Shown here: positions 17,447 through 62,942 of the stretch, piece after piece
How the letters are laid out: each line of letters opens with the position of its first letter
Position numbering within the stretch: the first letter of the stretch is position 1
From: a virus
Virus record (IMG/VR): IMGVR_UViG_3300025669_000020
Coordinates: 32,001-96,000 of that record
Direction: 5' to 3' (one strand)
Length of the DNA: 64,000 nucleotides
Translations under genes and position numbers: made by a program
The notes under the pieces: model-generated
The model's input: the letters and a program-made list of their open reading frames with translations, nothing else
Told to the model about the DNA's origin: nothing
The model's database searches: none

Positions 17447-17767
17447 ATGATGTCTGAACAGAACCTAGCACCAGAGAGCAGAATCGTGATGGCCAAGGAT
17501 TTGGCCACGCGATGGTTGCAAGCCCGAACACGCCCTGAGTACCGCATGCAGGTGTACTACGGGGCGCGTGAGGTGAAGGGCATCCCCAACCTTCTGAAGA
17601 GCTTCCGCGATGGGAAGATTCGCATGGGGTCTGTGGAACCCCTGGGAGATCTCGGAATCGATGAGCACTTCGACTCGATCACCGTGTGGTCGTCCAACCG
17701 TGTAGCCCTGATGGGCCTCAAGGACTGGTTCGAGACACGGGGGTTCGAGACAACAGGGGTGTGGTAG
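17447..17767 (+). CDS. hypothetical late protein (N-terminal LATRWL motif)
   Basis: GAGG RBS, first gene after a class B motif. Confidence 0.7.
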   Translation: MMSEQNLAPESRIVMAKDLATRWLQARTRPEYRMQVYYGAREVKGIPNLLKSFRDGKIRMGSVEPLGDLGIDEHFDSITVWSSNRVALMGLKDWFETRGFETTGVW

Positions 17768-18199
17768 ATGGCAGCCACCAGGCTCGGACTCGAATCCACC
17801 TACCGTTCCCCCTCCACGGGGTCGGTCTACTACACCTTCATTATCACCTCCGACGTGTCGGGGAACGTGTCGGTACGGGACATCCAAGGCCCCTATGGGC
17901 TCATTGTGGACACCCTGACCGATGTTCCCTCCTCCGTCATTGCGGACATCACAACCGCTATCAACGCAGTGGAGGCCATTTTGGCTGGCATCTCTTCCAC
18001 CAGTGGCAGCGTGACGTTCGCAGCCGAGACTTCCCAGGCAGTGGTGTTCAGCACCGCTCTGGCTGACGCCACCTACCGCGTCTACACCAATACGGCGGAG
18101 TTCGTGCCTGTGAAGATCACGAGCAAGGCTACCACTGGGTTCACCATCGAAATCGGTGTGACCTTCACCGGAACCGTCTACTACGACGTGCTCGTGTAG
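17768..18199 (+). CDS. virion structural protein, beta-rich
   Basis: T/S/V/G-rich; C-terminal VVFSTALADATYRV..SKATTGFTI domain shared with the next ORF. Confidence 0.6.
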   Translation: MAATRLGLESTYRSPSTGSVYYTFIITSDVSGNVSVRDIQGPYGLIVDTLTDVPSSVIADITTAINAVEAILAGISSTSGSVTFAAETSQAVVFSTALADATYRVYTNTAEFVPVKITSKATTGFTIEIGVTFTGTVYYDVLV

Positions 18200-18209
18200 A
18201 GAGGGCCTG

Positions 18210-19412
18210 ATGGCACAAACCCCATTCCAAGTAGATGCACTCCAGATCGAGCCGGGCTCTGGTGATACCCTGACAATCAGTCGGGATGCCACTGCAGGAG
18301 CGATGAAGCTCCTCGATGCGGTCCTCACCTCGGGGATCCTACTCCCCGATCTTTCGGGACTGCGGAACATCACGGGTGTTCATATCGTCGGTTCAGCTGG
18401 GACAGGAGCCAAGTACACCGCAATCCAAGACGGTGTCGACGCCGTGGCTGTTACGGCGGACGTGGATGCCCCTGAGCTGGTCCTGGTCCTCACCGGGGTC
18501 TACACCGAGAACCTGCTCATCCAGAAGGATGGGGTCGTCATCATGGGCCAGGGCCTGGTCCGGGTCACCCCCGACAACACCGCCAGTCCTACTGTGACCA
18601 TCTCGACAGCGGTCGGCACGACACCGAACTACACGATGTTGAAGAACCTCACCGTGGAGCATCCCACCGCCGGCGAGGTTTGTGTCTCTATCGCGGGGGG
18701 AGCCGCCTCCGTTGTGGGCTCCACAGGCATCTACATCGATGGCTGCAACATCGTGGCCTCAGGGGTAGGCACCTATCAGGTGGATGCAGACACCGTGAAC
18801 AACGTCTACATCCGGGGTGGCACCTGGGCAGGTTCCAGTTCCAGTGCTGTCTGTCAGGCTGCCAACTGTGCCCTCTTCTATGTGTCCAACGTGGAAGAGA
18901 CACAGAACTTCCAGGTCAGCTACGACACCGCTGCTGCCCGCCCGCTGACCACCACGTCGGCTTACCGGCTGTGGAACCTGGGGTCTGCAACAGACCTCCT
19001 CTCCAGCCTCTCCGGTGCAGGTAGCCTGACCATCAGTGGCTGCCCCTCCATGGGGAATGTGGCCCAGGCAGGGGACAGAGCCCTGACCCTCAACTACAGC
19101 CGCGTTGGAACCCTCACCCTGGACGACACTACCGCAGGAACCTTGTTGGGTTCGACACGGGGTGTGGCTGCTGGAAACGGCACCCTCCAAGAGGACTCCC
19201 TGACCAGCACCTCGGTGTTTGCGGCAGAGGGGGTGGCAGGCAAGACCATCACCTTCGCAGTGGATCAGCCTGACACGGACTACGCTGTGTTCCTGGACTG
19301 GACGGGCACAGAATCCGTGCGTGTGTCCAGCAAGACAGCTGCCAACTTCGTCATCACCACATCTGGCAACATCACCGGGTCGTTGTTCTACACCGTCAAC
19401 CGGGAGATCTGA
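18210..19412 (+). CDS. virion appendage protein with beta-helix (pectate-lyase-like) domain
   Basis: YTAIQDGVDA..GVYTENL beta-helix cap; C-terminal ITFAVDQPDTDYAV..SKTAANFVI. Confidence 0.65.
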   Translation: MAQTPFQVDALQIEPGSGDTLTISRDATAGAMKLLDAVLTSGILLPDLSGLRNITGVHIVGSAGTGAKYTAIQDGVDAVAVTADVDAPELVLVLTGVYTENLLIQKDGVVIMGQGLVRVTPDNTASPTVTISTAVGTTPNYTMLKNLTVEHPTAGEVCVSIAGGAASVVGSTGIYIDGCNIVASGVGTYQVDADTVNNVYIRGGTWAGSSSSAVCQAANCALFYVSNVEETQNFQVSYDTAAARPLTTTSAYRLWNLGSATDLLSSLSGAGSLTISGCPSMGNVAQAGDRALTLNYSRVGTLTLDDTTAGTLLGSTRGVAAGNGTLQEDSLTSTSVFAAEGVAGKTITFAVDQPDTDYAVFLDWTGTESVRVSSKTAANFVITTSGNITGSLFYTVNREI

Positions 19413-19414
19413 TC

Positions 19415-19705
19415 ATGAGCCTTCGCAAGAACCTCATTCGCCTCGCACACACCAACCCTGAGTTGCGCCCCCAGCTGCTCCCCATTCTGAAGGGCTCCGC
19501 CTATGATGGGAACGCTGACGGCAAGCCTATCTATGACCACGATATCGATCATGGGTACGGGCAGCCTTTGGCTGGTGGCACCGACGTGATGCGTCGTCTG
19601 CAGAACCAGTACCGGAAGGAGCAGGGTCGCCCCGAGCGCCCTGCAAACCCCGAAATCCCCAAGATGGCTTCCCGTGTTGCTCTGCGGCATCTCGACAGGA
19701 AGTAG
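19415..19705 (+). CDS. small putative head protein with LIRLA and RVALRHL motifs
   Basis: N-terminus shared with 60376..60954. Confidence 0.65.
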   Translation: MSLRKNLIRLAHTNPELRPQLLPILKGSAYDGNADGKPIYDHDIDHGYGQPLAGGTDVMRRLQNQYRKEQGRPERPANPEIPKMASRVALRHLDRK

Positions 19706-19714
19706 GAGAACACC

Positions 19715-20362: not shown

Positions 20363-20974
20363 ATGGTTGAGAAGCCCCTTGCAGCCCGTGTTGCTTCCAG
20401 GCACCTGGAAGGACACCACAATCCGCAGACGCGGACGGCGGGTGAAGTACGCTTCATCAAGGACCGTGGTTCTGATCACAACGAGTGGGGCTGGGGAACT
20501 CCGGGCCCTTCGGAACGTGAGATCAACCATGAGTTTGTCTTCAACGCCAAGTACCTGAAGCCCCTCGCTCAGTCCCTCCGCGCTGCCCTCATGGCTCTTG
20601 GCCACACCACCAGTGCCCACACCCAGTTCGTGAAGCTCAAGAGCCGCAACGTGTCCCCTGATGGGAACCTGGGTGGCAAGGGCTACATCCAGAAGATTGC
20701 TGACATGCGCCGCCAGTTGATGAACTGCATCGAGGCGTTGTCCTCTTTCACGGATACCGTGTACGATGAGCTGGCTGCCCCTCACTGGGATCCCGCCGAA
20801 GATGTGCTCTCTCCCCGTGATCGTGATGAGGTCAAGGAAATCATCGATGATGCCGAGGAGATCAAGCTGGATCCCAAGGAATGGGCAGAGGATGAAGAGG
20901 CGGAGATGGACAGTGCCAAGGGGAACGGCGTCGGCAAAGTCGCAGCCCTCTACATGGCTCGGAGGAACGCATGA
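20363..20974 (+). CDS. putative internal head protein
   Basis: RVASRHL at N-terminus, KVAALYM at C-terminus. Confidence 0.6.
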   Translation: MVEKPLAARVASRHLEGHHNPQTRTAGEVRFIKDRGSDHNEWGWGTPGPSEREINHEFVFNAKYLKPLAQSLRAALMALGHTTSAHTQFVKLKSRNVSPDGNLGGKGYIQKIADMRRQLMNCIEALSSFTDTVYDELAAPHWDPAEDVLSPRDRDEVKEIIDDAEEIKLDPKEWAEDEEAEMDSAKGNGVGKVAALYMARRNA

Positions 20975-23751
20975 GCAATGACAAGCACCTCGATGTGCTG
21001 GGCGAATCCCATCTCCCGGATGACATCTGGACCCCTACAGAGGGTGAGAACTATGGGCTCGATGGATACCCTGACATGGACTACGGTTCAGGGGTACTCC
21101 ACGGGAATCCCAACGTCTCCGAGACAGTCCCCCGTATGGACGAGGGTGTTCTTGCAGACATCGTAGACGGTGCTCCTGATGGGCAGGTGTTTGGCCCCTT
21201 GGGTGACATCGCGGATATGATGAAGCAATCCTCTCTCCCAGACCTGACTTGGCTGGAAGTAGATGAGCAGGATGCCACCAGGCTCCCCGTCAATCCCGTT
21301 GACCAGAGCATCCCCGAGCTGGAAGAGGCTTGGGGTGTAGACCGCCGTTCTGATGGTGTCCACCTGATCCCCAATGTGGATCTGGAGAAGGCAGCCTATG
21401 AAAAGGCTCTCAAGGATGGCGATGTACGCCCTGTCCGCACCAGAGCCGCACTCCTGAACATTGTGCGGAAGGCCATGCGACGCTCCGCCGCCGGCGTCCC
21501 CTTCGAGGACATCGAGGCAGAGGTTCAGGAGACCCTGGGAGACGATCTCCCCCTGGTGCAGAAGCACCTCCAGCTCATCCGTGATGGGCATGACCTCTCA
21601 GGGCGTGTCTTCATCCATGCAGACGCCTACCCGGGTTGTGCCAATGGGGACTGGACAGAGGCAGTCAAGAAGGTGGCTTCGGGCTCCCGCTATGTGGTAG
21701 CCGGTTCCTCCTGTGCCAACTGCGTTCAGAACCTCAGTGGTTCCTGCTCTGTGTTCAAGAAGAAGCTCGTAGCTTCTGTCCCCTGGGACGATGCCTTGGA
21801 GCATTACAGTCCTGAGCTGGAAGCAGCAGGCCGCAAGGTCGCTTCCGGCAACCCCAAGGCAGCCTTGAGGGCAGCCTTCGCCCAGGCCCCCGAGGGCATG
21901 GGATTCATCCAGAGGCACAAGCCTGTACACGTCACCCCCTCCGAGCGTATCTCCGCAGAGGAGGCTCACCGTGAGGTGCAGGCTGCCAAGACTGAGCGCC
22001 GGGTCTACACCCCCGCTGACAAGCAAGAAGCTCGGAAACTCCATGCTGCCCGTATCCGGGTAGCTCGCTGGGTTCAGCAGGGCCTCTTGGACAAGACGGC
22101 AGCTACCCGGATCGTGGCCCAGGCCAACCCCAAGGTCATGCTGGAGCAGGCAGTTTCCCGCATGGTGGCTTCCAACGGTTCCGCTGCGTACTCGGGCCTG
22201 GTGAATGACACCCGTGCTCCTGACATGGCGGGAGACGAGGCGTGGGAGCGTCTTGGTTCCGTGGCACCTCTCCCAGCGGTCAAGCTGTCCCGTGCTCAGG
22301 TGCACAAGCAGATCGCAAGGTGGGCTCGCACTGGACTCCTGGACAAGGGCTCTGTGCAGAAGCTGGCCCGCTCCCTGGCAGAACCCCGTGATGTCCTGCG
22401 GACAGCGGCGATCCTGGCCTCCGCAACTACCACAGGTGAATACTCGGGTGCGGTCAACAACATGCACGGCACCGAGGTCTCACAGGACCATGCGTGGAAG
22501 CTTCTCCGTGAAGCAGAGGACCATGCAGCCAAGGCAACAGCAGCCATCGTGGCTGAAGTTGAGCGCCGCGAGTTCCAGGCGTCCCGCGCTGGGAAGCACA
22601 TGGCCCGTGTGCAGGTGAAGGTGGCGAAGATCGAGGAAGCCATCAACCGTGGTGTGGTGGGAAGAAATCTCCTGAATCTCATTCAGGAGACCATCCGTCC
22701 CGACGATCACGACATGGCAATCCCTCTCCTGGATCCCATCCTTCAGCGGACTGGTGCTCTGGAGAAGGAGATCCAGACCGTCCATGACTACTCCGGTGTG
22801 GATAACAAGCGGGCATCCGAGGATGTCACCTCCGCGGATGCCTGGAAGCATTTGTTCACGACTGCCGATGTGGCTCAGCAGAAGGCAGCCAGGATTCAGG
22901 AGTCCCGTACCGCGAGGGTTTCTCTCACCATCGAACGCAAGGTCGTCCAGGTCAAGGAGGCTATCGAGCGTGGTGCAAGAGGGCAGGCCCTCCGTAAGAT
23001 CATCGCCCGCACCTTCCTGAAGGATGAGATTCCCCAGGCAGCCACTTTGCTGAACCCTCTCCTTGAGAAGACGGGGGCTCTGTCGGAGTCCTCTACTCAG
23101 GAATACCAGGGTGCCAAGTTCGAGCGGGCTGTGGGTCGTAAGGCCGAAGCTGTCCCACTCCCGAAGGAAGTGCGCGGTGTGCTTCGCTGGGCCCGGCAGA
23201 AGATGTCGGAAGGCAACGTCGGAAACCAGCTGGATGAGCTGTTGTCGATGCGGTTCTCTCCCCGTGTGCTCACAGCCGCGCAGGGAGCCCTCCAGGATGC
23301 CCGTGGGCGTCACGAAGGGCTCGCAGGCATACTCTATGTGGATGCGTCCGCCTATGCCTCAGAGAGGGGCACAAAGGGTTGTGAGCACGGTGCCGTCAAG
23401 CACCGCGCCAATACCCTGAAGGCTGTTCTGCAGATGGACAGGTGTGCTTCCTGCTCCCTGCGGAATGTAGGCTCCGATGGCACACCCCGTTGCCAGACCT
23501 ACAAGAAGGCTCTGATCTCCGAGCTTACACCAGAGGAAGCCTCGGGTCTCCAGGCGGAGAACATCCGCATGGCCAATGCCCCTGACCAGGAAGTCACAGC
23601 CTCTCTGTTCACTCCCATGGGCAACCTGTTCAACCAGGCGGAGTTCAGCTTGAGCAGCGGTGAGTATGACGACATTTCGGTCGAAGATGCTCCTGACATC
23701 AAGAAGCTGGGTGACGTGCTCTTTGGTGGTTTGCACCTGTCAGAGGACTGA
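20971..23751 (+). CDS. large repeat-containing late protein with two Cys-rich domains (putative prohead/core protein)
   Basis: Internal repeats and many KVA/RTA sites. Confidence 0.6.
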   Translation: MSNDKHLDVLGESHLPDDIWTPTEGENYGLDGYPDMDYGSGVLHGNPNVSETVPRMDEGVLADIVDGAPDGQVFGPLGDIADMMKQSSLPDLTWLEVDEQDATRLPVNPVDQSIPELEEAWGVDRRSDGVHLIPNVDLEKAAYEKALKDGDVRPVRTRAALLNIVRKAMRRSAAGVPFEDIEAEVQETLGDDLPLVQKHLQLIRDGHDLSGRVFIHADAYPGCANGDWTEAVKKVASGSRYVVAGSSCANCVQNLSGSCSVFKKKLVASVPWDDALEHYSPELEAAGRKVASGNPKAALRAAFAQAPEGMGFIQRHKPVHVTPSERISAEEAHREVQAAKTERRVYTPADKQEARKLHAARIRVARWVQQGLLDKTAATRIVAQANPKVMLEQAVSRMVASNGSAAYSGLVNDTRAPDMAGDEAWERLGSVAPLPAVKLSRAQVHKQIARWARTGLLDKGSVQKLARSLAEPRDVLRTAAILASATTTGEYSGAVNNMHGTEVSQDHAWKLLREAEDHAAKATAAIVAEVERREFQASRAGKHMARVQVKVAKIEEAINRGVVGRNLLNLIQETIRPDDHDMAIPLLDPILQRTGALEKEIQTVHDYSGVDNKRASEDVTSADAWKHLFTTADVAQQKAARIQESRTARVSLTIERKVVQVKEAIERGARGQALRKIIARTFLKDEIPQAATLLNPLLEKTGALSESSTQEYQGAKFERAVGRKAEAVPLPKEVRGVLRWARQKMSEGNVGNQLDELLSMRFSPRVLTAAQGALQDARGRHEGLAGILYVDASAYASERGTKGCEHGAVKHRANTLKAVLQMDRCASCSLRNVGSDGTPRCQTYKKALISELTPEEASGLQAENIRMANAPDQEVTASLFTPMGNLFNQAEFSLSSGEYDDISVEDAPDIKKLGDVLFGGLHLSED

Positions 23752-24758: not shown

Positions 24759-25412
24759 ATGCCTACCACTCAGCAGATTCTTGCTACGCTCCCCTCGGAC
24801 ACTACTCGTGTCCAGGTGCAGAACACTATGGGCAAGACCAAGTACAAGGCCCCTTCCGAGGTGCTGCCTTCTGATACGATCCAGTTCAACAGTGCTGGTG
24901 ACCCCATTGTGATGACTAGCCTCCCTGGTCGCCGCCCGCAGGCTGCCCCGCAGGCTATCAATACTGCCACCGCAGCGGTAGTGCAGCACAAGGAAGACAG
25001 CATGAAGAAGGACCCCCTTCTTCGGTCTGTCACGGACGACCCACACAGTCTAGAAGTGCTGGACGGCATCATCACGGGCATCTCCGAGGAAGCTGCCTCC
25101 TTGCACTTCGAGCGTCAGGAAGCAGACCGTCGCGGGAATGAAACCAGCAAGATTTCCTTGCGGCGTGTCAATGCCCTGAAGGCAGCAGCCGACGTGTACC
25201 TGAAGCGTCGTGAACAGCTGTCCTCCGGGGTGGTGGATCTGGATGGGCCCGCTTTCGAGAAGGTCTTCCTGTTCATCATCGAGACCATCCGTAACAGCAT
25301 GACTGAGTCAGGAGTGCCCTACGAGCAGGTGGATGCTCTGTTCTCCAAGGTTGCCAAGCAGTTCGATGCAGGGTGGCAGGCGGAGGCCCGAGTCCGCATG
25401 GCTCAGAAGTAG
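24759..25412 (+). CDS. probable terminase small subunit
   Basis: Helical 217-aa ORF directly upstream of terL; assignment by synteny only. Confidence 0.45.
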   Translation: MPTTQQILATLPSDTTRVQVQNTMGKTKYKAPSEVLPSDTIQFNSAGDPIVMTSLPGRRPQAAPQAINTATAAVVQHKEDSMKKDPLLRSVTDDPHSLEVLDGIITGISEEAASLHFERQEADRRGNETSKISLRRVNALKAAADVYLKRREQLSSGVVDLDGPAFEKVFLFIIETIRNSMTESGVPYEQVDALFSKVAKQFDAGWQAEARVRMAQK

Positions 25413-25420
25413 GCTACACC

Positions 25421-27772
25421 ATGGCACTTTCTGATCTGGTTCTAGGCGCAGGGCGCATGAAAACCGGGGAGTCCCGTACTCCCACGGACATCATCACGTT
25501 TATCGAGGCCCCTTGGGGCCTCGATATGAAGCTGTACCCTGTGCAGAGGGTCATCCTCAAAGCCCACTACGGCATGGGTTTGGATGACAACCCTTTGGGG
25601 TTCCCTCTTGACGATCCGATCCCCGAGGATCACCCGCACTACGACCCCAAGTGGTTTGACATCAATCCCCGTGCGGCACAGAACACCATCGAGATCACGA
25701 ACCCGTTGACGATCCCTGACGGGGCAGACATCACCCTGGTAGACCACACAGGTGCTGCCATCTTTTTCAGGGAGGGTGTCCACTGGTCCCGCCAGGGGTC
25801 TGTTGCTGATGTGACAGCATCCATCATACAGACGCTGAGGGACAATGTCCCGGACACATTCACGGTAGATGATACGGATTACGGGCGTATCAAGGTGCTA
25901 AGCAAGGGGTATAGCATCGAAGGGAATGCTGCGGATATGCAGCTGACGCCTTGTGCTGGTTGGAGGGTGGGGCTCCCCGCCTTGGAGACGGATCAGGAGG
26001 GGTATGAGCAGCACCACCACCGCTTCTTTGCGGGTGAGGGCGGCTTCTACAAGTACCGCATCCCCATCTCTGACTGGCGTCGTGAGAACGCTCGTGTGTA
26101 CACGGAGGCAGGGTATCTCAAGTACCTGCATAGTGAGAATCGCTGCAACGTAGCAGAGATCATCCCGGGGCAGGAACGTCGTGAGATGGTTCTTTCCATT
26201 GGGCGTCGTTCTGGCAAGACGCTCCTGACTTCCTGCATCCTGGCCTATGAGACATACAAGCTGTTGCTCAAGGGCAACCCGCAGAAGCATTACGGCTCCA
26301 GCCAGTCCAACGTCATCCAGCTCATCAGTGTTGCTACTGACAAGGATCAGGCAGGGCTTCTCTACCAGGAGGCCGCCGGACATTTTGGAAAATGCGATTT
26401 CTTTGCAGCCTATATGGCGAACGCCACCCAGAGCTTCGCTACGTTCCAGACCCCTTTCGACATTGAACGCTACGGCTCCTACGCGGAGAACCAGAAGGCC
26501 CGCTACTCGGTCAAGGTCACCTTCAAGAGCTGTGTGGCCAAGGGGCTTCGCGGTGGTGCCAACATCCTGGTTGCCTTGGATGAGGTTGCTCACTTCACAG
26601 ACAAGGGTCAGTCCTCCGCAGAATCTGTCTACCAGGCAGTAGAGCCCTCTACCCGAACCTTCTCTCCGAAGGACCCCAACAACGCCACCCGTTCCGTGGG
26701 CCAGAACGAGGGTCGGATCATCATGATCTCGTCCCCTCTGGGCAAGCAGGGGCTCTTCTACAAGAGCTACCAGATCGGCTACACCAGTGGTCGTGCTGCC
26801 AAGAACATGCTCTGTATCCAGGCACCAACATGGGAGGTCAACCCCACGGTGCCCGCAGGGACGTTTGAGTCTTCCTACCTCAAGGATGCCCGTGTGTTCG
26901 ACACGGAGTTCGGGGCGAAGTTCACGGACAGGTCTTCAGGCTGGATCGAGGACAAGAGAGATCTCCTTGACTGTGTGACCCCATCGCTGAGACCCAAGCA
27001 GAAGGCCCGTCCTCGTGAGCCTCACTTCCTGGGACTCGATGTGGGTCTTGTAGGGGATGGTTCCGCTGTGGCTATCGGGCATGTGGATGATAATAAGAAT
27101 GTCGTCCTGGATTTCATTGAACAGATCAAGGCTGGGGAAGGGCGGTTCGAGCACTTGGAGCGGTTGGAGTTCACGGATGTTGCGGACTGGGTTTATGACC
27201 TCTCCCGGAGGTTCTACATCTCGGAGGGGATCTTTGACCAGTGGGCAGGTATTCCCATGGAGCAGGCACTGGCTGCCCGCGGTCTCAAGCAGCTGAAGTC
27301 TGTGTTTTTCACGAAGCCCAAGAGCAGTGAGATATTCCAGAACTTCAAGAACATGATGTACGACAAACGGCTTTCACTGTTCAACTACCCTCTCAAAGAG
27401 GGGGAGGAACATTGTGACTACCTCAAGGAACTGCTGACCCTCCAGGCTGAATACCAGTCCAAGTACATCACGGTGGTGGCTGCTCCCAACACTCAAGGCA
27501 TGCACGATGATATGTCCGATGCCCTTGTTCGTATGGTGTGGGTTGGTTCCCAGCACATGGGCAAGATGTTGGCGGTTGGCAATTACATCGGTGGGCAAAT
27601 GGGTGGGAAGGGTCCGAGGCGTAGTTCACTCACGGATCGGATGGCCACCCGGCAGAAAGCTCTTTTGGGTGGGAGCCATCCAGATCGTCAGGTGCGTCGT
27701 AGCAAGAAAAACATCATGGGCATGCCCGTGGGTGCGACACGGGGTGTGAACCCCAGAACACGTCGGGGATAA
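25421..27772 (+). CDS. terL: terminase large subunit with N-terminal insertion
   Basis: LYPVQ, GRRSGKT, VALDEVAH, ISSP, nuclease LGLDVG and HDDMSDA. Confidence 0.93.
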   Translation: MALSDLVLGAGRMKTGESRTPTDIITFIEAPWGLDMKLYPVQRVILKAHYGMGLDDNPLGFPLDDPIPEDHPHYDPKWFDINPRAAQNTIEITNPLTIPDGADITLVDHTGAAIFFREGVHWSRQGSVADVTASIIQTLRDNVPDTFTVDDTDYGRIKVLSKGYSIEGNAADMQLTPCAGWRVGLPALETDQEGYEQHHHRFFAGEGGFYKYRIPISDWRRENARVYTEAGYLKYLHSENRCNVAEIIPGQERREMVLSIGRRSGKTLLTSCILAYETYKLLLKGNPQKHYGSSQSNVIQLISVATDKDQAGLLYQEAAGHFGKCDFFAAYMANATQSFATFQTPFDIERYGSYAENQKARYSVKVTFKSCVAKGLRGGANILVALDEVAHFTDKGQSSAESVYQAVEPSTRTFSPKDPNNATRSVGQNEGRIIMISSPLGKQGLFYKSYQIGYTSGRAAKNMLCIQAPTWEVNPTVPAGTFESSYLKDARVFDTEFGAKFTDRSSGWIEDKRDLLDCVTPSLRPKQKARPREPHFLGLDVGLVGDGSAVAIGHVDDNKNVVLDFIEQIKAGEGRFEHLERLEFTDVADWVYDLSRRFYISEGIFDQWAGIPMEQALAARGLKQLKSVFFTKPKSSEIFQNFKNMMYDKRLSLFNYPLKEGEEHCDYLKELLTLQAEYQSKYITVVAAPNTQGMHDDMSDALVRMVWVGSQHMGKMLAVGNYIGGQMGGKGPRRSSLTDRMATRQKALLGGSHPDRQVRRSKKNIMGMPVGATRGVNPRTRRG

Positions 27773-28061: not shown

Positions 28062-28445
28062 ATGGCACGACTTCGCAAAGGCTCCTTGGCATCTCCCGCT
28101 GATAGGGAGATTCTGGGCCATGTGGCAGCAGCGGAGAGGGCCCTTCGCAAGGCTTTGGATGCTTGTGTCCTAGCTAAGAGGCAATCTCGGTCCCCAGGCA
28201 GCAATCTCCGTATGGCCCGCGTGATCAGAACACAGCGGGATCTACATCGGGTGATGGCGGCTCTGTCAAATGTGCATCGCATCGTACCCCTTCATGACAT
28301 GGGCGAGCAGGATCCGGGTGAGCTGGATCGTGATCTCATGTCCCCAGAAGAGCGTGCAGCCTTTGATGCTGTGGAAGACCAGCGAGAGGACTTGTTGGCA
28401 GCAGTAGCAGAGAAGTTGACGGCAGCCTGGGAGAGTGCTGAATGA
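28062..28445 (+). CDS. hypothetical protein
   Basis: GAGG RBS, ATGA overlap with portal. Confidence 0.6.
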   Translation: MARLRKGSLASPADREILGHVAAAERALRKALDACVLAKRQSRSPGSNLRMARVIRTQRDLHRVMAALSNVHRIVPLHDMGEQDPGELDRDLMSPEERAAFDAVEDQREDLLAAVAEKLTAAWESAE

Positions 28446-30214
28446 CCAAGAACACACTTGAGAAACCTCCGTTCCCGGAGAAGGCCCCCACTTCACAGAA
28501 GCGATTGGCCTCTACCTCCATGTCAGAACCCCAGGAAGGTCGTGTAGTGGCCAAGGTGCGCCCGCGCCCCAAGGTCAAGACAGGAAAGCCCAAGCGGCTG
28601 GACAAGGTCGCTGCAATGCGGGTGGCCTCCTGTGGTGGCGGCGGTCTTTCAACCTCTGGCTCGGAAAGTGCCTCCTTCGGCAACTTCTACAGCCCAGAGC
28701 TGTCCACGGACTTCTTGGAGCTGGCACAGTCCAAGACTGAGCAGTGGGCCTACTACCGCTTCTTCTACAACGCCGATCCCTTTGTGGGACAAGCCATCGA
28801 TCTCCATACGGAGCTGCCCCTCTCCCGTGTACGCTTGGACATCCCCGAGGCCAAGAGCCGTGAATTGGCGATGAAGTCCACCCGGTTCTGTAAGCACTGG
28901 GCGAAGGACATTCAGCTCTTGCGGAAGCTGTGGGGTGTGCTCCATGAGTATCACCTCATTGGGGTCGTCAACATCTACATCGAGGACAACAACCCGGAGA
29001 TGCCGGAAGAGGTCCGAATCGAAAGGGTGCGGGAACTCCAGGAGGACGGCACCCTGGTAGAAGAGGAGCAGGAGCTGGAGGACGCTGACGAAAGGTCCGT
29101 GGCATGGCTCAAGAAGAACTACAAGGGTTGGACAGGGTTCCGTGTCATCCCCCCAGAGCAGGTGCATGTTGAGGGGTTCCCCTCCACAGATCTGAAGCTG
29201 GTGGAGATGATCCCCGATGCCAAGACCCGCAAGCTCGTCATGGCAGCAGACAGCGGGGACGCTCGTTCCGCATCCATCGTCAACACGATGGCTCCTGAGA
29301 TCGTAGAAGCCGCACGCACAGGTCAGAATGTTCCCCTGAACACCGACCCAGATGCAGGCAGCTTCGTCCATGTCCTCGAAAACAAGAAGTGCCCCTACCA
29401 GGATGGTGGGCAGTCCATCTTGGAGCGGTGTATCCGCACCCTGGTGTTCTGGGACAAGCTCCGCCAGGCCAACACCTCCATCGCTTCCCGGCACATGACC
29501 CCTATTCGGGTTGTGTACGCAGAGGACATGGACATGGCCGACGTGGAGAACCTGCGTGACCAGGTGGACATGGCCCTGCAGGATCCCGATTTCTCCATCA
29601 TCGCCAACTTCCAGATCACCTGGGACGAGATGGGGTCGGATCAGCGTCTGCTAGACCTGTCCAGTGAATACGAGTTCGTGCGGCAACAGCTGTTCGCGGG
29701 TTTGGGAGTCACGGAAGGTCTGCTCACAGGTGAGTCCAGCTACTCCGGTGACCGCATCCATCTGGATGTGATCAACACTCGGTACATGCTGCTCCGTGAG
29801 GTCATTCAGGAGTTCGTGGAAGAGCAGCTCCTGAAGCCGATGTGCAGGCGCATGGGCTTTATCGAGGAGGATGAGGACGGCCGTGATGTCGTCATCTACC
29901 CGAAGTTCAGCTTCACACGGTTGGCTCTGCGGGACAACGCGGACACTTTCGATGCCATGCTCAACCTCTACCAGAAGGGGAGCCTGGACATTGATGCCAT
30001 CCTGGAACTGCTGAATATCGATCCGGTGGCCACGAAGGAGAAGCTGGACAGGGACAAGTTCACCCTGAACGATGCTGCCTTCAGCGAGGTGCTTCGAGGC
30101 ATCTACGGTGAGGCAGGACGTGCATTGGCGGCAGATTCCGACGTGTTGGAGATCATTGCCAAGAACCTGGGGCTGAAATATGAGAAGCCCAAGGAAGAAG
30201 GCGGAAGGTACTAG
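28442..30214 (+). CDS. portal protein
   Basis: RFFYNADPFVGQAIDLHTELP, GQSILERC..L, LFAGLGV..LLTG, FVEEQLLKP; follows terL. Confidence 0.85.
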   Translation: MTKNTLEKPPFPEKAPTSQKRLASTSMSEPQEGRVVAKVRPRPKVKTGKPKRLDKVAAMRVASCGGGGLSTSGSESASFGNFYSPELSTDFLELAQSKTEQWAYYRFFYNADPFVGQAIDLHTELPLSRVRLDIPEAKSRELAMKSTRFCKHWAKDIQLLRKLWGVLHEYHLIGVVNIYIEDNNPEMPEEVRIERVRELQEDGTLVEEEQELEDADERSVAWLKKNYKGWTGFRVIPPEQVHVEGFPSTDLKLVEMIPDAKTRKLVMAADSGDARSASIVNTMAPEIVEAARTGQNVPLNTDPDAGSFVHVLENKKCPYQDGGQSILERCIRTLVFWDKLRQANTSIASRHMTPIRVVYAEDMDMADVENLRDQVDMALQDPDFSIIANFQITWDEMGSDQRLLDLSSEYEFVRQQLFAGLGVTEGLLTGESSYSGDRIHLDVINTRYMLLREVIQEFVEEQLLKPMCRRMGFIEEDEDGRDVVIYPKFSFTRLALRDNADTFDAMLNLYQKGSLDIDAILELLNIDPVATKEKLDRDKFTLNDAAFSEVLRGIYGEAGRALAADSDVLEIIAKNLGLKYEKPKEEGGRY

Positions 30215-30223
30215 GAGTAGACC

Positions 30224-30902: not shown

Positions 30903-30913
30903 AGGTTTAGAAG

Positions 30914-47041: not shown

Positions 47042-47120
47042 CGACAGGCAGACTCCCAAGTGATCTGTCTTGCGCCGCTACAGACAGTCTCACTACAACC
47101 CCAGCAACAGGAGTCGCCCC

Positions 47121-47810: not shown

Positions 47811-47819
47811 GGGATCACC

Positions 47820-48401
47820 TTGACCCATTCCCGTACCGCCGTGAACTACCAGGAGCGTGCAGCTGAATTTGCTGTGGGTGAAGAGGTGGAGACCGTCAAC
47901 GGTACGCATGGGCGCATTGTGGCCCTCTGGCCTGCCATTGGCATGGCTGATGTGGAGTTCCCCAACGGGAGCCGTCGTATCCCTGTAGAAGAGATGTACC
48001 GGGCTCCTGGTAGCTGGGTAGCCTCTCCCCAGGGCGAGACTGTTCCAGGGGGACTCCCCACCGTTTCTGTTCCTGGTGGCTCTGTCGCTCCTATCCCCCC
48101 TCCCGTCAAGAAGACCGCTTCCCCACAGTCCCAAGAGCGCGTTGCTCGGGCTTTTGTGAAGAGGGCTCTCTACTGGGCAGGGAAGGACAGGCAGTACAGG
48201 GCTTCTGGTGATGAGGTCGATTCAGGACTCTACTGCTGCCCCAAGTGCAAGGCACGGGGGGAAGAAATCCCAATGAGACGTGCGATCTACAAGCGGCGCA
48301 ATGGTTGTAGTGATCGGCTCTTGGGATGTCCCTCCTGCATGTTCTTGATCAAGCGGTCGGATGTCCTGAATGACCCCACATACCAGGTAGAGGTTGTCTG
48401 A
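47820..48401 (+). CDS. head-operon protein with SH3-like and Zn-ribbon (CPKC..CPSC) domains
   Basis: VGEEV..GRIV..ADVEF; two CxxC; RVARAFV boundary. Confidence 0.6.
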   Translation: MTHSRTAVNYQERAAEFAVGEEVETVNGTHGRIVALWPAIGMADVEFPNGSRRIPVEEMYRAPGSWVASPQGETVPGGLPTVSVPGGSVAPIPPPVKKTASPQSQERVARAFVKRALYWAGKDRQYRASGDEVDSGLYCCPKCKARGEEIPMRRAIYKRRNGCSDRLLGCPSCMFLIKRSDVLNDPTYQVEVV

Positions 48402-50008: not shown

Positions 50009-51186
50009 TGAGCACGCGTAACCGCATGACGTGGGACGGTGAGGAAAAGCGCGCCTCCCTCCCGGTCGAAGAAGCCGACAAGAGGGCATCCGCCCCCCCC
50101 GCCGTCCCCATGGACCCTGACCACCCCGCCGCCAAGCCCGACCCCGATGAGCATCACTACGAGAATGGTGACACCTCCTCATGGGCCGAAGACCCGACGA
50201 CTGGTCCCTACCCCAACAGCGAGGCCCCCGCGGTTCCCACCGATACGGGCCACCCCGCTGCCAAGCAGGCTGCTGACATTCGTGTCGCCGCTGAGAAGAA
50301 GGCTGCCAAGTGCATCCGCATCGCGCAGACCCTTCTCGTTGGCTTGGATGTCCCCACCATCGAAGACCAGGCCCTTGAGCTGATGGATCTCCCCGATGTC
50401 TCCCTGGACGCTACCCTCCGCCGGATGGAAGCTGCCCATGAGGACGAGGAAGTCCTGCTCCGCAAGATGCTGGCTGGTGATGAGGATGAGGAAGAGGAAG
50501 AGGGCAAGGAAGCCACCGATGTGGAAGCAGCCGATGAGTCCGACAAGGACGCCTCGACTGACCGCATGGCCGAAGTCCTGACCGCTCTCCGCGACCTCCA
50601 GGGTCAGCTCGACACCCTCCGCAACCCCGTGGTCGCTGGCGAAGACGCCGATGACGATGAGGATGAGGATGGGGACAAGGCTGCCGAAGTCGTGGAAGAG
50701 GACGAAGAGGAAGTCCTCTTGGCCCAGATGTTGGCGGAGCTGGACTCCGGCTGCGAAGGCTGCAACGAGAACGCCATGGAAGAGGAAATGGTCGAAGAGG
50801 TGGCAGAGGTCGCCCCCGAAGCCATGATGGACATCGTGGATGATGAGATGATCATCGAAGACGATCCCATGATGGACGCCGAGACTGACATCAGCCTGGA
50901 AATGATGGATGACCCCATGGGTCTGGGCGGCACCAACGACATCCTCCCCGAGGACGAGATGGCACTGGCCAATCTGTTCCACCAGGCAGACGACAAGGTC
51001 GCTGGCGAAGAGGCCAAGGACGACAAGGACGACAAGGAAGCTGCCGAGCGTCCCCAGCCCAAGAAGGCAGGCACTGGCCCCAAGACTCTGGGCAACCAGA
51101 CCATGACCAAGAGCGCCTCCAACGAGATGAACGAACTCGGCAAGCTCTGGGAGACCGCTCCCGACGTGACCAAGTTCTTCGAGTAG
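50008..51186 (+). CDS. capsid scaffolding protein
   Basis: Highly acidic with coiled segments, many KxA sites, C-terminal LWETAPDVTKFFE; between protease and MCP. Confidence 0.65.
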   Translation: MSTRNRMTWDGEEKRASLPVEEADKRASAPPAVPMDPDHPAAKPDPDEHHYENGDTSSWAEDPTTGPYPNSEAPAVPTDTGHPAAKQAADIRVAAEKKAAKCIRIAQTLLVGLDVPTIEDQALELMDLPDVSLDATLRRMEAAHEDEEVLLRKMLAGDEDEEEEEGKEATDVEAADESDKDASTDRMAEVLTALRDLQGQLDTLRNPVVAGEDADDDEDEDGDKAAEVVEEDEEEVLLAQMLAELDSGCEGCNENAMEEEMVEEVAEVAPEAMMDIVDDEMIIEDDPMMDAETDISLEMMDDPMGLGGTNDILPEDEMALANLFHQADDKVAGEEAKDDKDDKEAAERPQPKKAGTGPKTLGNQTMTKSASNEMNELGKLWETAPDVTKFFE

Positions 51187-51274: not shown

Positions 51275-51411
51275 AGTTCTTCTCAATATCCCTTCAATAA
51301 CGCGGGGACTTAGTGACGGAACAAGTTTGGATGAGGTTGTCTCACCCAACAGTTTCCGCGCCCCCCCCCACCGTCCCTGTAAACAGGGAGCGGTCGCATG
51401 AAGGAGACAAC

Positions 51412-52077: not shown

Positions 52078-52086
52078 GAGAAGATC

Positions 52087-52962
52087 ATGAGCAACGTATC
52101 CAACGCTGCAAAGCAGCAGATCATCTCCGAGTTCATCAAGACCCCCCAGGGTCGCGCTAAGCTCGCAGCCTCGATGACCCAGCCTCTGCGCCTCCGCCGG
52201 GACTACACCGCAGTCGGTCGTAAGACCTTCCTCGTGGAACAGCTCCCTGACGGCGCACTGCCCATCTACGACAAGGACCCCGATGTGACGGCATACGTCG
52301 TTGGTGAAGAAGGCGAGAACATCCTCGCAGTCACCAAGCCTCGCCGTGTCATCTTCCCCCTCTTCGAGATCGCATCCAACCCCGAGATCCCGCTCACGCA
52401 GATCAAGGAACGTCGGTTCGACCTCATCGAGCGCGCCCAGGACTTGGCCCGTGCCCAGATCCAGGCAGCAGAAGACGAGCGTGTCTTCGCAGTGCTCGAC
52501 AGCATCGCCACCAACGGCTTCGACTCCGTGGCTGGCGGCACCAACCCTGACATCCCCGTGGTCGCTCCGATCTCTGGTGCTGTCCTGGCTGATGCCTTCG
52601 CACTGATCGAGCGTCATGACCTTCATGTCGCTCGCGTGTTCATGAACGCTCGGGACTACGCGGACCTCCGCAAGTTCGGTCGCGACATCCTGGACATCGA
52701 ATCCCAGCGCGATTTGTTGAAGACCGGCCTGATGGCAACCCTCTGGGGAGCACAGATCATCGTCAGCCGCCTCGTGCCTGTCGGAACGGTCTATGTGTGT
52801 TGCGAACCGGAAATGTTCGGCCGCATCCCCGTTCGCATTGAGCTGACAGTTCTCAGCGCAGACGACCCGAAGGCTCGCACCATCGGCTTCTCCTGCTTCG
52901 AGAACCTCGGTATCGGCGCGTTCAACCCCCGTGGTCTGACCCGTCTGACGATCACCCGTTAG
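52087..52962 (+). CDS. major capsid protein (HK97 fold)
   Basis: GRAKLAASMTQPLR.RDY.VGRK, FEIASNP, IQAAED, LWGAQIIVS..VP.G, ENLGI..NPRG; C-ending codon bias; followed by terminator. Confidence 0.88.
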   Translation: MSNVSNAAKQQIISEFIKTPQGRAKLAASMTQPLRLRRDYTAVGRKTFLVEQLPDGALPIYDKDPDVTAYVVGEEGENILAVTKPRRVIFPLFEIASNPEIPLTQIKERRFDLIERAQDLARAQIQAAEDERVFAVLDSIATNGFDSVAGGTNPDIPVVAPISGAVLADAFALIERHDLHVARVFMNARDYADLRKFGRDILDIESQRDLLKTGLMATLWGAQIIVSRLVPVGTVYVCCEPEMFGRIPVRIELTVLSADDPKARTIGFSCFENLGIGAFNPRGLTRLTITR

Positions 52963-61486: not shown

Positions 61487-61517
61487 TATACTACGCAGAA
61501 TAGGAGGATTCTGAATC
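61487..61517 (-). promoter_or_regulatory. class A promoter-like motif GATTCA-N15-GCGTAGTATA(AT)
   Basis: Matches 57745-57775. Confidence 0.6.
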
Positions 61518-61554
61518 TCTTGGGTAGAGTAAGGCGATCTCCTAGGAGGAATAT

Positions 61555-62505
61555 ATGCCCCAGCCCATCGTTTTCAAGCCTGGCACCTTCCAAACATTCC
61601 GAGCAACTACCCAGATCGCGATGCCCGAGGGCCTCGACATCCCGAGTGGGTACATCAGCATGGATGCCATCATCCAGTACGATGGACAGACCCTCAAGTA
61701 CGGCGGGGGCACCTACAATGTGTCACAGCTGCGGTCAGCCATCAAGGCTGGGTGGTTCGTGCCCGAGGCGGACACCACCACGAGCTATGTCCCCCAGCCC
61801 GCCAACGTGGCCATCCACAAGGCCACGTCTGCCAATGAGCTGCGTGGGGAGCCCATGACGGTCTCCACCGTGGATGAGGAAGAGCGTGACCTGGGCAGCA
61901 TCAAGTCCATCATGGGGCGCGAGGCCCCGAAGGCTGTGAGTGCTACCGAGGATGGGCAGGTGGTCTCCACGATCAAGACGGCAGCCAAGCAGCACACTGT
62001 CCTCAAGGACAGCCATGCCGCCACCGCAGCCATCCGCAAGCTGGACAACACGCCTCCCCCCAGGGCGGAGGCTGTGAAGAGGGCTGTGGCCACTGGTGAC
62101 GTTCAGGAAGCCAGGATGGGTGAGGGGCTGGAAGACATCCTGCCCGACGCCGAGTCCGCTGGAACTCCCGAGCCCGGTATGGCTGGTGAAGGCGACATGC
62201 CCCACCTGACAGCGGAAGAGAGGGCTGAAGCCCTGCGCCAGGCCCGCCTCTCCAAGATGGCAACCGCCAAGGCAGCTCCTGTGCCGGAGCCGGAGCCCGA
62301 GGCACCCGGTGACAAGGCCCTTCGGGATGCCAAGATCGCCGCACTCCAGGCTGTCATTCCTGGGTTCAAGTGGGACATGAGCGTGCACTGGCGCACCCGC
62401 GTCAAGGTGGCCCTGACCCACAAGGACGATCCGGTCTACATGAACGGCATCATGGCTGTCGAGATAGACGCCGTGAAGAAGCACGTGCAGAAAGAACTGG
62501 CATAG
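61555..62505 (+). CDS. hypothetical protein
   Basis: AGGAGG RBS, strong codon bias. Confidence 0.7.
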   Translation: MPQPIVFKPGTFQTFRATTQIAMPEGLDIPSGYISMDAIIQYDGQTLKYGGGTYNVSQLRSAIKAGWFVPEADTTTSYVPQPANVAIHKATSANELRGEPMTVSTVDEEERDLGSIKSIMGREAPKAVSATEDGQVVSTIKTAAKQHTVLKDSHAATAAIRKLDNTPPPRAEAVKRAVATGDVQEARMGEGLEDILPDAESAGTPEPGMAGEGDMPHLTAEERAEALRQARLSKMATAKAAPVPEPEPEAPGDKALRDAKIAALQAVIPGFKWDMSVHWRTRVKVALTHKDDPVYMNGIMAVEIDAVKKHVQKELA

Positions 62506-62512
62506 CCGTCCT

Positions 62513-62543
62513 CGGTCGCTGTCCTATAGTTATGCTCCGGTAG
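62513..62543 (+). promoter_or_regulatory. class B promoter-like motif CGGTC-N6-CTAT-N11-GGTAG
   Basis: Recurrent motif. Confidence 0.6.
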
Positions 62544-62567
62544 AGCTTTAGCTACCGGAGCATTGCC

Positions 62568-62942
62568 GTGAGTGCAGAAAAAAACGCCAACAGCCAGGCA
62601 ACTTGGGCTCTCCTCACGGAGAGCGTCTCGTCAGCACGGCTGAATGCTTACCGTCTAAGTCACCTTGTACAAAGGGCTCTCGCCTTGGTGGAGAAGTCCA
62701 CCCACAAGGACCATCTGTACCAGGTCGCGGGGGATGTCATCCAAGGGCTTCCAGAGCGCCTGGAGCGCCTGGAAGGGGACTTGGATAGGACTTCCTATAC
62801 ATTGTCCCGCCTTGCAGAGGATTCCTTGAGGGACCGCCTGCCTCTCGCAGACCGTGCCTTGGTGGATGAAGCCCTGCACAAGCCCAAGACGGCTTCTGCA
62901 TCTCGGGTGGGTGCTCGCTTCTTGCAGAAGTTGGAGAGCTGA
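62568..62942 (+). CDS. putative internal head protein (KNA, KTA and C-terminal RVGARFL)
   Basis: Motif content and late promoter. Confidence 0.6.
   Translation: MSAEKNANSQATWALLTESVSSARLNAYRLSHLVQRALALVEKSTHKDHLYQVAGDVIQGLPERLERLEGDLDRTSYTLSRLAEDSLRDRLPLADRALVDEALHKPKTASASRVGARFLQKLES

Follow-up and report, generated by a model that had tools for sequence, protein, structure and literature searches.

A seven-residue peptide recurs at the ends and module joints of unrelated enzymes encoded in the 64,000-nucleotide stretch of viral DNA analyzed here (the window), and the evidence below supports the conclusion that this tag is a genuine, peptide-selected feature common to a clade of phages. Judged from its sequence and setting, the tag most likely addresses its bearers to the capsid for loading, and the Lys/Arg-x-Ala sites that lie near it are likely cut marks. 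We infer that the tagged enzymes are packaged, cleaved and injected.

Results

The tag is enriched in proteins and selected as a peptide

The consensus of the tag is [RK]-[VI]-A-x-[RK]-[YWFH]-[LMI], with hydrophobic residues at i, i+1, i+4 and i+5 as in an amphipathic helix. A Ser/Ala/Pro-rich stretch is often found upstream and Lys/Ala-rich residues downstream. A position-specific scoring matrix (PSSM) indicates constraint on six of the seven positions with this helical spacing, and the variable one is the residue after Ala (S, A, T, G, L, Q, H or D). All 14 peptides listed in the initial annotation translate from the + strand, in real ORFs, exactly where it places them (Table 1), and most of them mark, as had been claimed, either end of a protein or a joint between modules.

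The enrichment that the annotation anticipated was found in three protein sets, at 20- to 58-fold, when matches to the regular expression [RK]V[AG].[RMK][FWHY][LIMV] were counted against per-protein shuffles. The 105.6-kb source contig contains 10 matches where 0.17 are expected (~58-fold), and its reversed sequences contain none. An independent set of 692 non-redundant proteins from 58 related portal loci gave 28 matches versus 0.95 in shuffles (~30-fold), and the complete 436-kb relative G002 gave 14 versus 0.67 (~20-fold). With an iterated 18-column PSSM, 149 sites were recovered from 1245 proteins, compared with ~6 in shuffles. A six-frame scan of the contig with a narrower expression ([RM] at position 5) returned 11 sites on the + strand and 0 on the - strand. 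Codon choice for Arg, Val, Ala and Leu differs freely among tag sites, and this synonymous variation indicates that selection acts on the peptide.

Additional tag sites lie past the end of the window (window positions 64259 and 64922) and upstream of it (contig positions 17475, 23180 and 24071). The replication/recombination block at 1-17 kb of the window, which encodes a RecD-like helicase, RecA, SbcCD-like proteins, a methylase, a PD-(D/E)XK nuclease and a clamp loader, has no tag site even at a lax threshold, in agreement with the absence first noted by eye.

Table 1. Tag sites and head genes in the window
Coordinates	Strand	Feature	Details
17498..17518	+	DLATRWL	Near N-terminus of 131-aa protein
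19673..19693	+	RVALRHL	C-terminal, 96-aa protein; K-M-A-S before, stop 3 residues after
20387..20407	+	RVASRHL	N-terminal (residue 9), 203-aa protein; then RTA-GEVRF opening conserved core
20936..20956	+	KVAALYM	Degenerate C-terminal tag, 203-aa protein; full tags in orthologues
20971..23751	+	926-aa protein	Rich in [KR]xA[ST]; candidate core or scaffold protein that undergoes processing
25373..27772	+	Terminase large subunit	No tag, no [KR]xA enrichment
28442..30214	+	Portal protein	N-terminal extension with RLAS (residue 21) and RVAS (residue 60)
31238..31258	+	RVASMHR	Internal, residue 109 of 1011-aa protein (DUF5661 + 2H/LigT); homology-block boundary
33971..33991	+	RVAQMHL	N-terminal, CCA/poly(A)-type nucleotidyltransferase; internal in fused relative L043
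38872..38892	+	RVASRHV	Internal, residue 414 of 604-aa protein; HSPs end at 411 and start at 414
40017..40037	+	RVAGRFL	N-terminal (residue 7), 669-aa GNAT-Ntn hydrolase-GNAT protein
40707..40727	+	RVASRFI	Internal (residues 237-243), 669-aa protein; predicted helix just upstream of Cys248
42543..42563	+	KVAARWL	N-terminal (residue 6), 1467-aa protein
44463..44483	+	KVAHRFM	Internal, residue 646 of 1467-aa protein; preceding homology block ends at 642
45207..45239	+	RVATRLADRFL	Internal (residues 894-904), 1467-aa protein; just before topoisomerase IB domain (936-1138)
47070..47810	+	Acidic 246-aa scaffold-like protein	KIAS, KSAS, KEAT, KAAG, KEAS
48138..48158	+	RVARAFV	Tag-like, 193-aa protein; KKTAS before, Cys-rich module after
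48401..50008	+	Putative head-maturation protease	535 aa; helical C-terminal domain; from PHROG matches and gene position
49978..51186	+	Acidic 402-aa protein	pI 4.05; probable scaffold
52087..52962	+	Major head protein	291 aa; [KR]xA[STG] sites = 0
62904..62924	+	RVGARFL	C-terminal, 124-aa protein; K-T-A-S-A-S before

Tags mark protein termini and module joints

Fifty-six of the 126 non-redundant tags lie 30 or fewer residues from a protein end, compared with 22 expected (binomial p = 3e-12); 31 are N-terminal, 25 are C-terminal and further tags are internal. Their offsets are tightly clustered, with N-terminal tags mostly beginning at residue 4-12 and C-terminal tags finishing 2-8 residues ahead of the stop. 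Terminal tags are kept in orthologues that have diverged to 29% identity. The bearers include 2H/LigT proteins, CCA-type nucleotidyltransferases, topoisomerase IB (TopoIB), GNAT, Ntn hydrolase and HAD proteins, a C39-like peptidase and a UvrD-like helicase. Individual modules are tagged at the N-end (P0002), the C-end (P0003) or both (a 197-aa LigT ORF in L051), tandem triple tags are present in P0016 and P0018, and after fusion into polyvalent proteins the tag stays at the joints. Orthologues of the 131-aa protein have RVARRWV, RLARRWV, AIAQRWL or KLASRWL in place of DLATRWL, L003 keeps the tag-like site of the 193-aa protein as KVAQRFV, and the G002 orthologue of the 124-aa protein has RIADRYL at its end.

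At least two unrelated enzymatic domains are joined in single polypeptides of the window, as in the GNAT + AAT/Ntn + GNAT protein and the 1467-aa protein that contains TopoIB, and the 1011-aa protein joins DUF5661 to 2H/LigT by Pfam. All internal tags in the window fall at homology-block or domain boundaries, and those at residues 109, 414, 237, 646 and 894 match the ends of BLAST blocks. Relatives encode the same modules as separate ORFs that start or end with a tag: the TopoIB tag aligns to the N-terminus of ORFs L051_16448 and L043_16688, and the Ntn tag to that of L030_21299. A 2493-aa protein of G002 (LigT + PolyA_pol + TopoIB + GNAT) has tags at 270, 1437 and 1910, between its Pfam domains. 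The initial annotation had also invoked zincin and ART domains of polyvalent proteins, and these did not materialize: among the scanned window proteins Pfam detected no MuF, zincin-type metallopeptidase or ART domain at E <= 0.01, a search that remote versions could escape.

The 669-aa protein has a Pfam AAT match (Ntn hydrolase, C45/AAT type). The AlphaFold2 (AF2) model places its Ntn domain at 248-510 with pLDDT above 90 and Cys248 as the first residue, and the tag at 237-243 as a low-confidence helix immediately outside this fold, which supports the proposal that tags lie at domain boundaries. In most Ntn homologues the Cys motif comes early in the protein, at residues 6-26, and several have the tag within a short propeptide. 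With Cys first in the modeled fold and propeptide removal predicted, this domain has the features of an N-terminal nucleophile hydrolase. The K-H-A|Cys junction is explained by predicted Ntn-hydrolase self-processing, for which the prohead protease is unneeded.

Tagged enzymes are clustered among head genes

The gene order in the window is TerL, portal, a run of tagged enzymes covering ~18 kb, the protease with a scaffold-like gene on either side, and the major capsid protein (MCP). Around the protease it runs: acidic 246-aa protein, 193-aa protein, protease, acidic 402-aa protein, a 254-aa ORF and MCP. Phages usually have their genes for head-internal proteins in the interval from portal to head-maturation protease. 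Many tagged enzymes, the multi-domain proteins among them, are encoded in this interval (28442 to 48401), which holds the densest tag cluster, and the giant proteins of relatives begin immediately downstream of the portal.

The putative protease matches phrog_18299, annotated as 'head maturation protease' (E = 8.7e-10), and phrog_2774 (2.5e-21); it has no Pfam match and no PDB match by single sequence or profile, and AF2 models its catalytic region with pLDDT below 50. Fifteen orthologues all keep Ser182 (LSMGC) and His59, 131, 166 and 233. Its gene position and conserved Ser and His residues are those expected of a prohead protease. Near residue 25, R-[VT]-A-S is kept in nearly all orthologues, and the orthologues also have a [KR]xA[S] site downstream of the catalytic region.

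Lys/Arg-x-Ala sites accompany the tag

The motif [KR].A[ST] exceeds expectation in orthologues of the scaffold (7.4-fold), the protease (4.8-fold) and the 926-aa protein (5.3-fold), and is not enriched in those of the portal (0.8-fold) or TerL (0.6-fold). In the window, [KR]xA occurs 15 times in the protease versus 6.3 expected (z 3.8), 15 times in the acidic 402-aa protein versus 4.6 (z 5.2), and in excess in the 926-aa protein (z 2.9). No enrichment is seen in the four tagged multi-domain proteins taken whole (z -0.7 to 1.2). The earlier claim of dense short [KR]xA sites therefore holds only in part; the portal taken whole is not enriched either, although RLAS and RVAS occur in its N-terminal extension.

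A [KR]xA[ST] site frequently lies between tag and conserved core, and [KR].A[STG] is ~7-fold enriched across the 10 residues upstream of C-terminal and internal tags. Sites just downstream of tags may reflect only the Lys/Ala-rich composition of the helix. The pattern is seen in the 203-aa family, whose core begins with [KR][TVQ]AGE[VI]RF in all local full-length orthologues but one, an exception of which only a C-terminal fragment is present in the locus; 72 of 150 database representatives have the same core opening. Leaders in this family range from a few residues to ~320, with tagged leaders of ~20-27 residues, and C-tails run through an acidic stretch, [KR]TAS, 3-15 residues and the tag to the stop. 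Judged from these distributions, the protease encoded at 48401 probably cuts at [KR]-x-A where S, T or G comes next.

The tag is shared among relatives and extends beyond the head module

Of 60 sequence sources, 37 contain the tag, and it also occurs in database proteins that stem from independent assemblies. It was not found in cultured relatives, phage G and Tunturi_5 being negative over the first 50 kb of each. Over half of the tagged genes in G002 are located away from the head module (at 61-84, 117, 154, 179, 252-255 and 311 kb), including those for a UvrD-like helicase and a C39-like peptidase, so the tag is not confined to that module. The overall picture drawn in the initial annotation is partly supported: the tag is real, marks module boundaries and has a head-gene setting, and the distribution in G002 counts against that picture. 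Our literature search found no paper describing this tag.

Discussion

Our best reading, which the sequence evidence leaves at about an even chance of being right, is an address tag resembling the T4 capsid targeting sequence (CTS) combined with a separate cut site. The tag would dock its bearer onto a component of the assembling prohead, for which the acidic scaffold-like proteins, the helical C-terminal domain of the protease, the N-terminal extension of the portal and the capsid protein's inner face are candidates. Docked enzymes would become enclosed in the capsid and later reach the host alongside the DNA. The protease would cut at [KR]-x-A before S, T or G, and as such sites often lie between tag and core, maturation would separate each enzyme both from its tag and from its neighbors. 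The first four residues of the tag, R-V-A-S, fit this site as well, so the tag itself may be cut. Such a scheme would widen the T4 capsid-targeting logic to either protein end and to internal joints. Several observations speak against this reading: the distribution of tagged genes in G002, the lack of [KR]xA enrichment over whole polyproteins, the possibly compositional origin of sites just downstream of tags, the absence of Pfam and PDB matches for the protease, and the variable residue after Ala, which fits a solvent-facing helix position better than P1'.

Alternatively, the tag could be no more than an extended, high-affinity cleavage site of the head-maturation protease (R-V-A then S-R-aromatic-L) for cutting polyproteins into modules, with no addressing role. 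R-V-A-S matches the [KR]xA[ST] motif, which is in excess in orthologues of the scaffold and the protease, and is conserved near the protease's own N-terminus, and tags are carried at polyprotein joints. However, separate modules retain the tag so close to their start or stop that a cut there would remove few residues, terminal tags persist across deep divergence, and P0016 and P0018 carry it in tandem triplicate. The constrained positions also follow a helical pattern in which the would-be P1' is the variable one. We regard this explanation as unlikely. A similarly low probability attaches to a docking peptide for a hub other than the capsid, either a cytoplasmic enzyme complex or a host factor, comparable to clamp-binding or PIP-like motifs. 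Placement at either terminus is typical of short hub-binding motifs, nucleic-acid or RNA-repair enzymes make up most of the tagged enzymes, and many tagged G002 genes, the UvrD-like helicase among them, lie outside the head module. Against it, tags are densest between portal and protease and are linked to the same [KR]xA[ST] sites as the scaffold-like proteins and the protease, and the replication/recombination block, clamp loader included, has no tags; many Ntn-hydrolase homologues, moreover, carry the tag in a short propeptide that would be lost on self-processing, which suits a transient role in assembly.

That the recurrence is no functional peptide at all is strongly disfavored and very improbable, whether it is put down to chance, to composition or to an element acting at the DNA level in recombination or regulation at gene ends that happens to translate this way. 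The motif does sit at gene ends and fusion joints, as DNA-level signals and recombination breakpoints do, but its excess over shuffles, its absence from reversed sequences and the opposite strand, its free codon variation and its recurrence in independent assemblies all speak against this.

Encapsulin cargo-loading peptides and the encapsulation peptides of bacterial microcompartments are short, sit at either end of unrelated enzymes on flexible linkers and bring these enzymes into a shell made of protein; encapsulin shells have the HK97 fold. The likeness to our address-tag reading is an analogy: the sequences are unrelated, and the phage system would add a probable proteolytic release step. 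The herpesvirus capsid-maturation serine protease, assemblin, cuts sites with Ala at P1 and Ser at P1', which would match [KR]xA-S if the phage cut falls there.

In T4, the internal proteins IPI-III and Alt carry a CTS that is removed by the prohead protease gp21, and head proteins of phiKZ and SPN3US have longer propeptides (PMC5694885). Like the CTS, the tag forms a short N-terminal leader common to unrelated proteins (the 31 N-terminal cases), its genes are associated with head genes and a prohead protease, and the tagged leader of the 203-aa family ends at a conserved site matching the motif of the scaffold-like proteins. The sequences are unrelated, however, the tag here is also C-terminal (25 cases) and internal, sometimes doubled or tripled, and the putative cut motif is Lys/Arg-x-Ala then Ser/Thr/Gly rather than the hydrophobic-x-Glu of T4. 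For polyvalent proteins of phages and conjugative elements, packaging and delivery along with the DNA are predicted, and release is proposed to come from embedded zincin-type peptidases (Iyer, Burroughs, Anand, de Souza, Aravind 2017, PMC5512222). As described there, unrelated effector-type domains are strung together here beside portal and head genes and are heavily shuffled between relatives (PMC5512222). That paper does not use the word 'linker', and its retrieved passages name no shared joint or terminal peptide. In the window, by contrast, Pfam found no MuF, zincin or ART domain, the joints share a tag, and the head-maturation protease is the candidate enzyme for release.

Taken further, the sequence patterns suggest a two-part, position-independent cargo code in which R-V-A-x-R-aromatic-L loads and Lys/Arg-x-Ala then Ser/Gly releases, a proposal that we hold tentatively, at somewhat short of an even chance. 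If true, this code would be used throughout a clade of huge phages, uncultured and only distant relatives of Bacillus phage G, and would allow them to reshuffle modules for RNA repair, topoisomerase, acetyltransferase and hydrolase functions and to inject a set that changes over time. The tag would then be a natural, portable capsid-loading signal that functions from either terminus.

A peptide tag is enriched in proteins of an uncultured huge phage

The initial annotation described about 14 occurrences of a short peptide, R-V-A-x-R-aromatic-L (hereafter the tag), at protein termini and domain joints, and we found all 14 of the listed peptides at their positions. Using the regular expression [RK]V[AG].[RMK][FWHY][LIMV], we obtained 10 matches in the contig's own proteins (0.17 expected from shuffles), 14 matches in G002, a complete 436-kb relative (0.67 shuffled), and 28 matches in 692 non-redundant proteins from related loci, a set that took no part in deriving the motif (0.95 shuffled). 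An iterated PSSM recovered 149 sites, compared with ~6 in shuffles, and gave the consensus [S/A-rich]-x-[RK]-[VI]-A-x-[RK]-[WYFH]-[LM]-[K/A-rich]. Terminal tags made up 56 of 126 non-redundant sites where 22 were expected (p = 3e-12); N-terminal tags mostly begin between residues 4 and 12, C-terminal tags finish 2-8 residues ahead of the stop codon, and one 309-aa protein carries a tag at both ends. The replication block (1-17 kb) is free of tags, as had been judged by eye, and additional sites are present at 64259 and 64922 in window coordinates and at three places upstream of the window. The codons of the conserved tag residues differ synonymously from site to site, indicating that the peptide, not the DNA, is under selection. 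Given this variation, and because the contig's other strand had zero matches to a narrower form of the expression ([RM] at position 5), we rejected the tag as a DNA-level signal.

The window covers bases 32001-96000 of an IMG/VR contig that is 105.6 kb long and 23% complete as estimated by CheckV. Relatives of its portal in IMG/VR number 58, and the longest of their contigs is 436 kb; an identical copy of the 669-aa protein lies on a separate 356-kb contig. In tblastn searches, the nearest named phages to the portal were an uncultured 485-kb phage (63% identity), Tunturiibacter phage Tunturi_5 (38%) and Bacillus phage G (26%), and we therefore conclude that the source is an uncultured huge phage that is a distant relative of phage G. 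The region containing the protease and scaffold had zero megablast matches in 50,697 phage records, and the initial 50 kb of phage G and of Tunturi_5 lacked the tag.

Enzyme genes account for ~18 kb between the portal and the head-maturation protease. The small ORF directly after the portal gene resembles the C-terminal segment of relatives' portals and has matches in 56 loci; in related locus L006, for example, it is 60% identical to portal residues 472-513. Mobile elements lie within the head module directly past the major head protein (MCP) gene (53158-56164), and an Rfam scan of 51-62 kb detected no known RNA family. An antisense ORF of 438 aa that overlaps the MCP gene has an open counterpart in G002 (46% identity). 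This ORF, which misleads longest-ORF callers at a place where PHROGs point to MCP, most likely stays open because the MCP on the sense strand is conserved and the genome is GC-rich.

Features of the window
Feature	Position	Annotation
RecD-like helicase, RecA, SbcCD-like proteins, DNA methylase, PD-(D/E)XK nuclease, clamp loader	1-17 kb	
TerL	25373-27772	
Portal	28442-30214	
61-aa ORF	30224-30409	
1011-aa protein	portal-protease interval	DUF5661 + 2H/LigT domain
CCA/poly(A)-type nucleotidyltransferase	portal-protease interval (33953-36596)	with intein
HD protein	portal-protease interval	
604-aa protein	portal-protease interval (gene at 37633)	
669-aa protein	portal-protease interval	GNAT-Ntn hydrolase-GNAT
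1467-aa protein	portal-protease interval	topoisomerase IB domain, residues 936-1138
Acidic 246-aa protein	47070, one side of protease	
Head-maturation protease	48401-50008	phrog_18299 + phrog_2774
Acidic 402-aa protein	49978, other side of protease	pI 4.05
Antisense ORF	51310-52626 (-)	
Major head protein (MCP)	52087-52962	phrog_2522, E = 1e-50
LAGLIDADG homing endonuclease	53158-54309	phrog_11023
Large transposase	54302-56164, opposite strand	phrog_506, E = 1e-103

Tags mark the boundaries of rearranged modules

The proposed location of tags at domain joints was borne out by homology and, for the 669-aa protein, by structure prediction. The window's internal tags fall where BLAST homology blocks end (104/109, 411/414, 237, 642/646 and 890-907), and no Pfam domain envelope in the window proteins contains a tag. 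For this protein, AF2 gave residues 248-510 a pLDDT above 90 and placed the tag at 237-243 just outside this domain as a low-confidence helix (235-242); the N-terminal tag is disordered in the model.

Module order differs among the relatives, and modules that are joined by a tag in one protein occur as separate ORFs elsewhere. In related loci L051 and L043, the topoisomerase IB module found downstream of the residue-894 tag has its own ORF with an N-terminal tag. L030 encodes the Ntn module on its own, starting with a tag, and L051 encodes LigT as a 197-aa ORF whose two ends each carry a degenerate tag. In the window, the tag of the CCA gene begins six residues past two stop codons, and the equivalent junction in L043 is an internal tag inside a fused 1293-aa protein. 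These two stop codons (33944-33955) are all that parts the 1011-aa and CCA ORFs, which share a frame. The tagged CCA gene itself is split by an apparent frameshift near 34340-34378, where homology to the L043 protein changes frame directly past ...EGKGY, and its intein contains a LAGLIDADG domain (Pfam Intein_splicing over residues 97-514 of the second ORF).

A 2493-aa protein of G002 has tags at 270, 1437 and 1910, all of them between Pfam domains (LigT, 128-234; PolyA_pol, 304-454; TopoIB, 1468-1671; GNAT, 1753-1837). Of 27 homologues of the Ntn module in databases, 17 (query included) have tags; one protein ends with a tag, another starts with one, and in several the tag lies inside a short propeptide ahead of the nucleophilic Cys. 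Two homologues (P0016 and P0018) contain three tandem tags in ~30 residues (RVATRFQ, RVATRFL, RVAARFL) between the Ntn and the next module, an arrangement that suggests multivalent binding.

A short [KR]xA motif is concentrated in the protease and two further proteins

It had also been suggested that the head-maturation protease may cut after [KR]xA, and such sites had been described as dense in the scaffold, the protease, the portal N-terminus and polyprotein linkers. The density was evident in the protease (15 observed, 6.3 expected, z 3.8), the acidic 402-aa protein (15 observed, 4.6 expected, z 5.2) and a 926-aa protein (25 observed, 15.1 expected, z 2.9), but the polyproteins showed no general enrichment. 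In orthologues, [KR]xA[ST] exceeded expectation 4.8-fold, 7.4-fold and 5.3-fold for these three proteins, respectively, and was not enriched in portal (0.8-fold) or TerL (0.6-fold) orthologues. Sites of this type number five in the acidic 246-aa protein and zero in MCP, and the N-terminal extension of the portal contains RLAS and RVAS.

An alignment of 15 proteases shows an invariant Ser182 (in LSMGC), R-V-A-S near residue 25 in nearly all sequences, and a [KR]xA[S] site past the catalytic region. The protease had no Pfam match and no PDB match by sequence or by profile, and AF2 modelled with confidence only its C-terminal helical domain (residues 420-527, pLDDT about 90). At 535 aa the protein is unusually long, and an invariant cluster of Cys residues (C185, C192, C195, C206 and C231), which suggests a zinc-binding insert, is followed by an acidic linker and then by the conserved helical domain, a candidate capsid- or cargo-binding part.

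The tag and the short motif are linked

R-V-A-S of the tag matches the short-motif pattern, and [KR].A[STG] is ~7-fold enriched within ten residues ahead of C-terminal and internal tags. A 203-aa protein family illustrates this proximity. [KR][TV]AGEVRF stands at the start of its conserved core in every local full-length orthologue except one (which is present only as a C-terminal fragment in its locus), and the core starts in this way in 72 of the 150 representatives taken from a library of 1.84 billion proteins. The leader ahead of this core can be as short as a few residues or as long as about 320, with tag-bearing leaders of about 20-27 residues, and the C-tails of the family run from an acidic stretch through [KR]TAS and 3-15 further residues to a tag and the stop codon.

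Tagged genes also occur away from the head module

In G002 the head module holds fewer than half of the tagged genes; those elsewhere encode, among other products, a UvrD-like helicase, a C39-like peptidase, a second TopoIB and a HAD protein. The last two belong to a second cluster of tagged enzymes well away from the head genes (L065:1025-4575, 81-84.6 kb). There, the topoisomerase IB protein is tagged at residues 24 and 501, and the HAD protein, a member of the 'Swiss Army Knife RNA repair' family, has its tag at the C-terminus. CTS-bearing genes of T4, which encode internal proteins with a capsid targeting sequence, are also scattered, so the tags outside the G002 head module weaken but do not refute a role for the tag as an address.

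The exact 11-mer CTGTCTATACC has only two copies (37597-37607 and 47018-47028), both intergenic and located upstream of the tagged 604-aa gene and the acidic, scaffold-like 246-aa gene. While this sequence may be a shared promoter element, its mismatch-tolerant count was at chance level, and it therefore gives no support to a claim on expression timing; we rejected it as a shared late promoter.

A putative address label for head cargo

From these analyses, the best-supported model is that the tag is an address label accompanied by a separate cut site, with both loading and cleavage putative; we give this model about an even chance of being correct. If the tag were instead a pure cleavage site, conserved copies would not be expected at extreme termini, and the constraint pattern of the tag is helical, so we disfavor this explanation. 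We also disfavor a hub-binding motif for a non-capsid partner, given the linkage of tags to scaffold-type sites and the lack of tags in replication proteins. Chance or a DNA-level origin is rejected by the enrichment and codon data.

To our knowledge, the choice of non-structural cargo for tailed-phage capsids is understood mechanistically only for the N-terminal CTS of T4. The pairing of an address label with a [KR]xA site resembles that of the T4 CTS with the prohead protease gp21 (PMC5694885), and the address-label model here extends this logic to polyvalent head proteins (PMC5512222). Full-text searches on motif strings gave no paper describing the tag, and the excerpts of this polyvalent-protein paper and of jumbo-phage papers contain no shared joint peptide.

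Prohead proteases of T4 and phiKZ follow a rule of Glu at P1, and the linked [KR]xA[ST] motif would define a specificity unlike it. Should the tag prove to be a loading signal, one could read the head cargo of hundreds of uncultured huge phages straight from sequence, and the module-by-module building and reshuffling of polyvalent head proteins would be explained. Such a signal would also provide engineers with a small tag, functional at either end, to load foreign proteins into large capsids. For the phages themselves, a loading signal would suggest that a toolkit for tRNA/RNA repair and DNA topology is injected as an early counter-defence.
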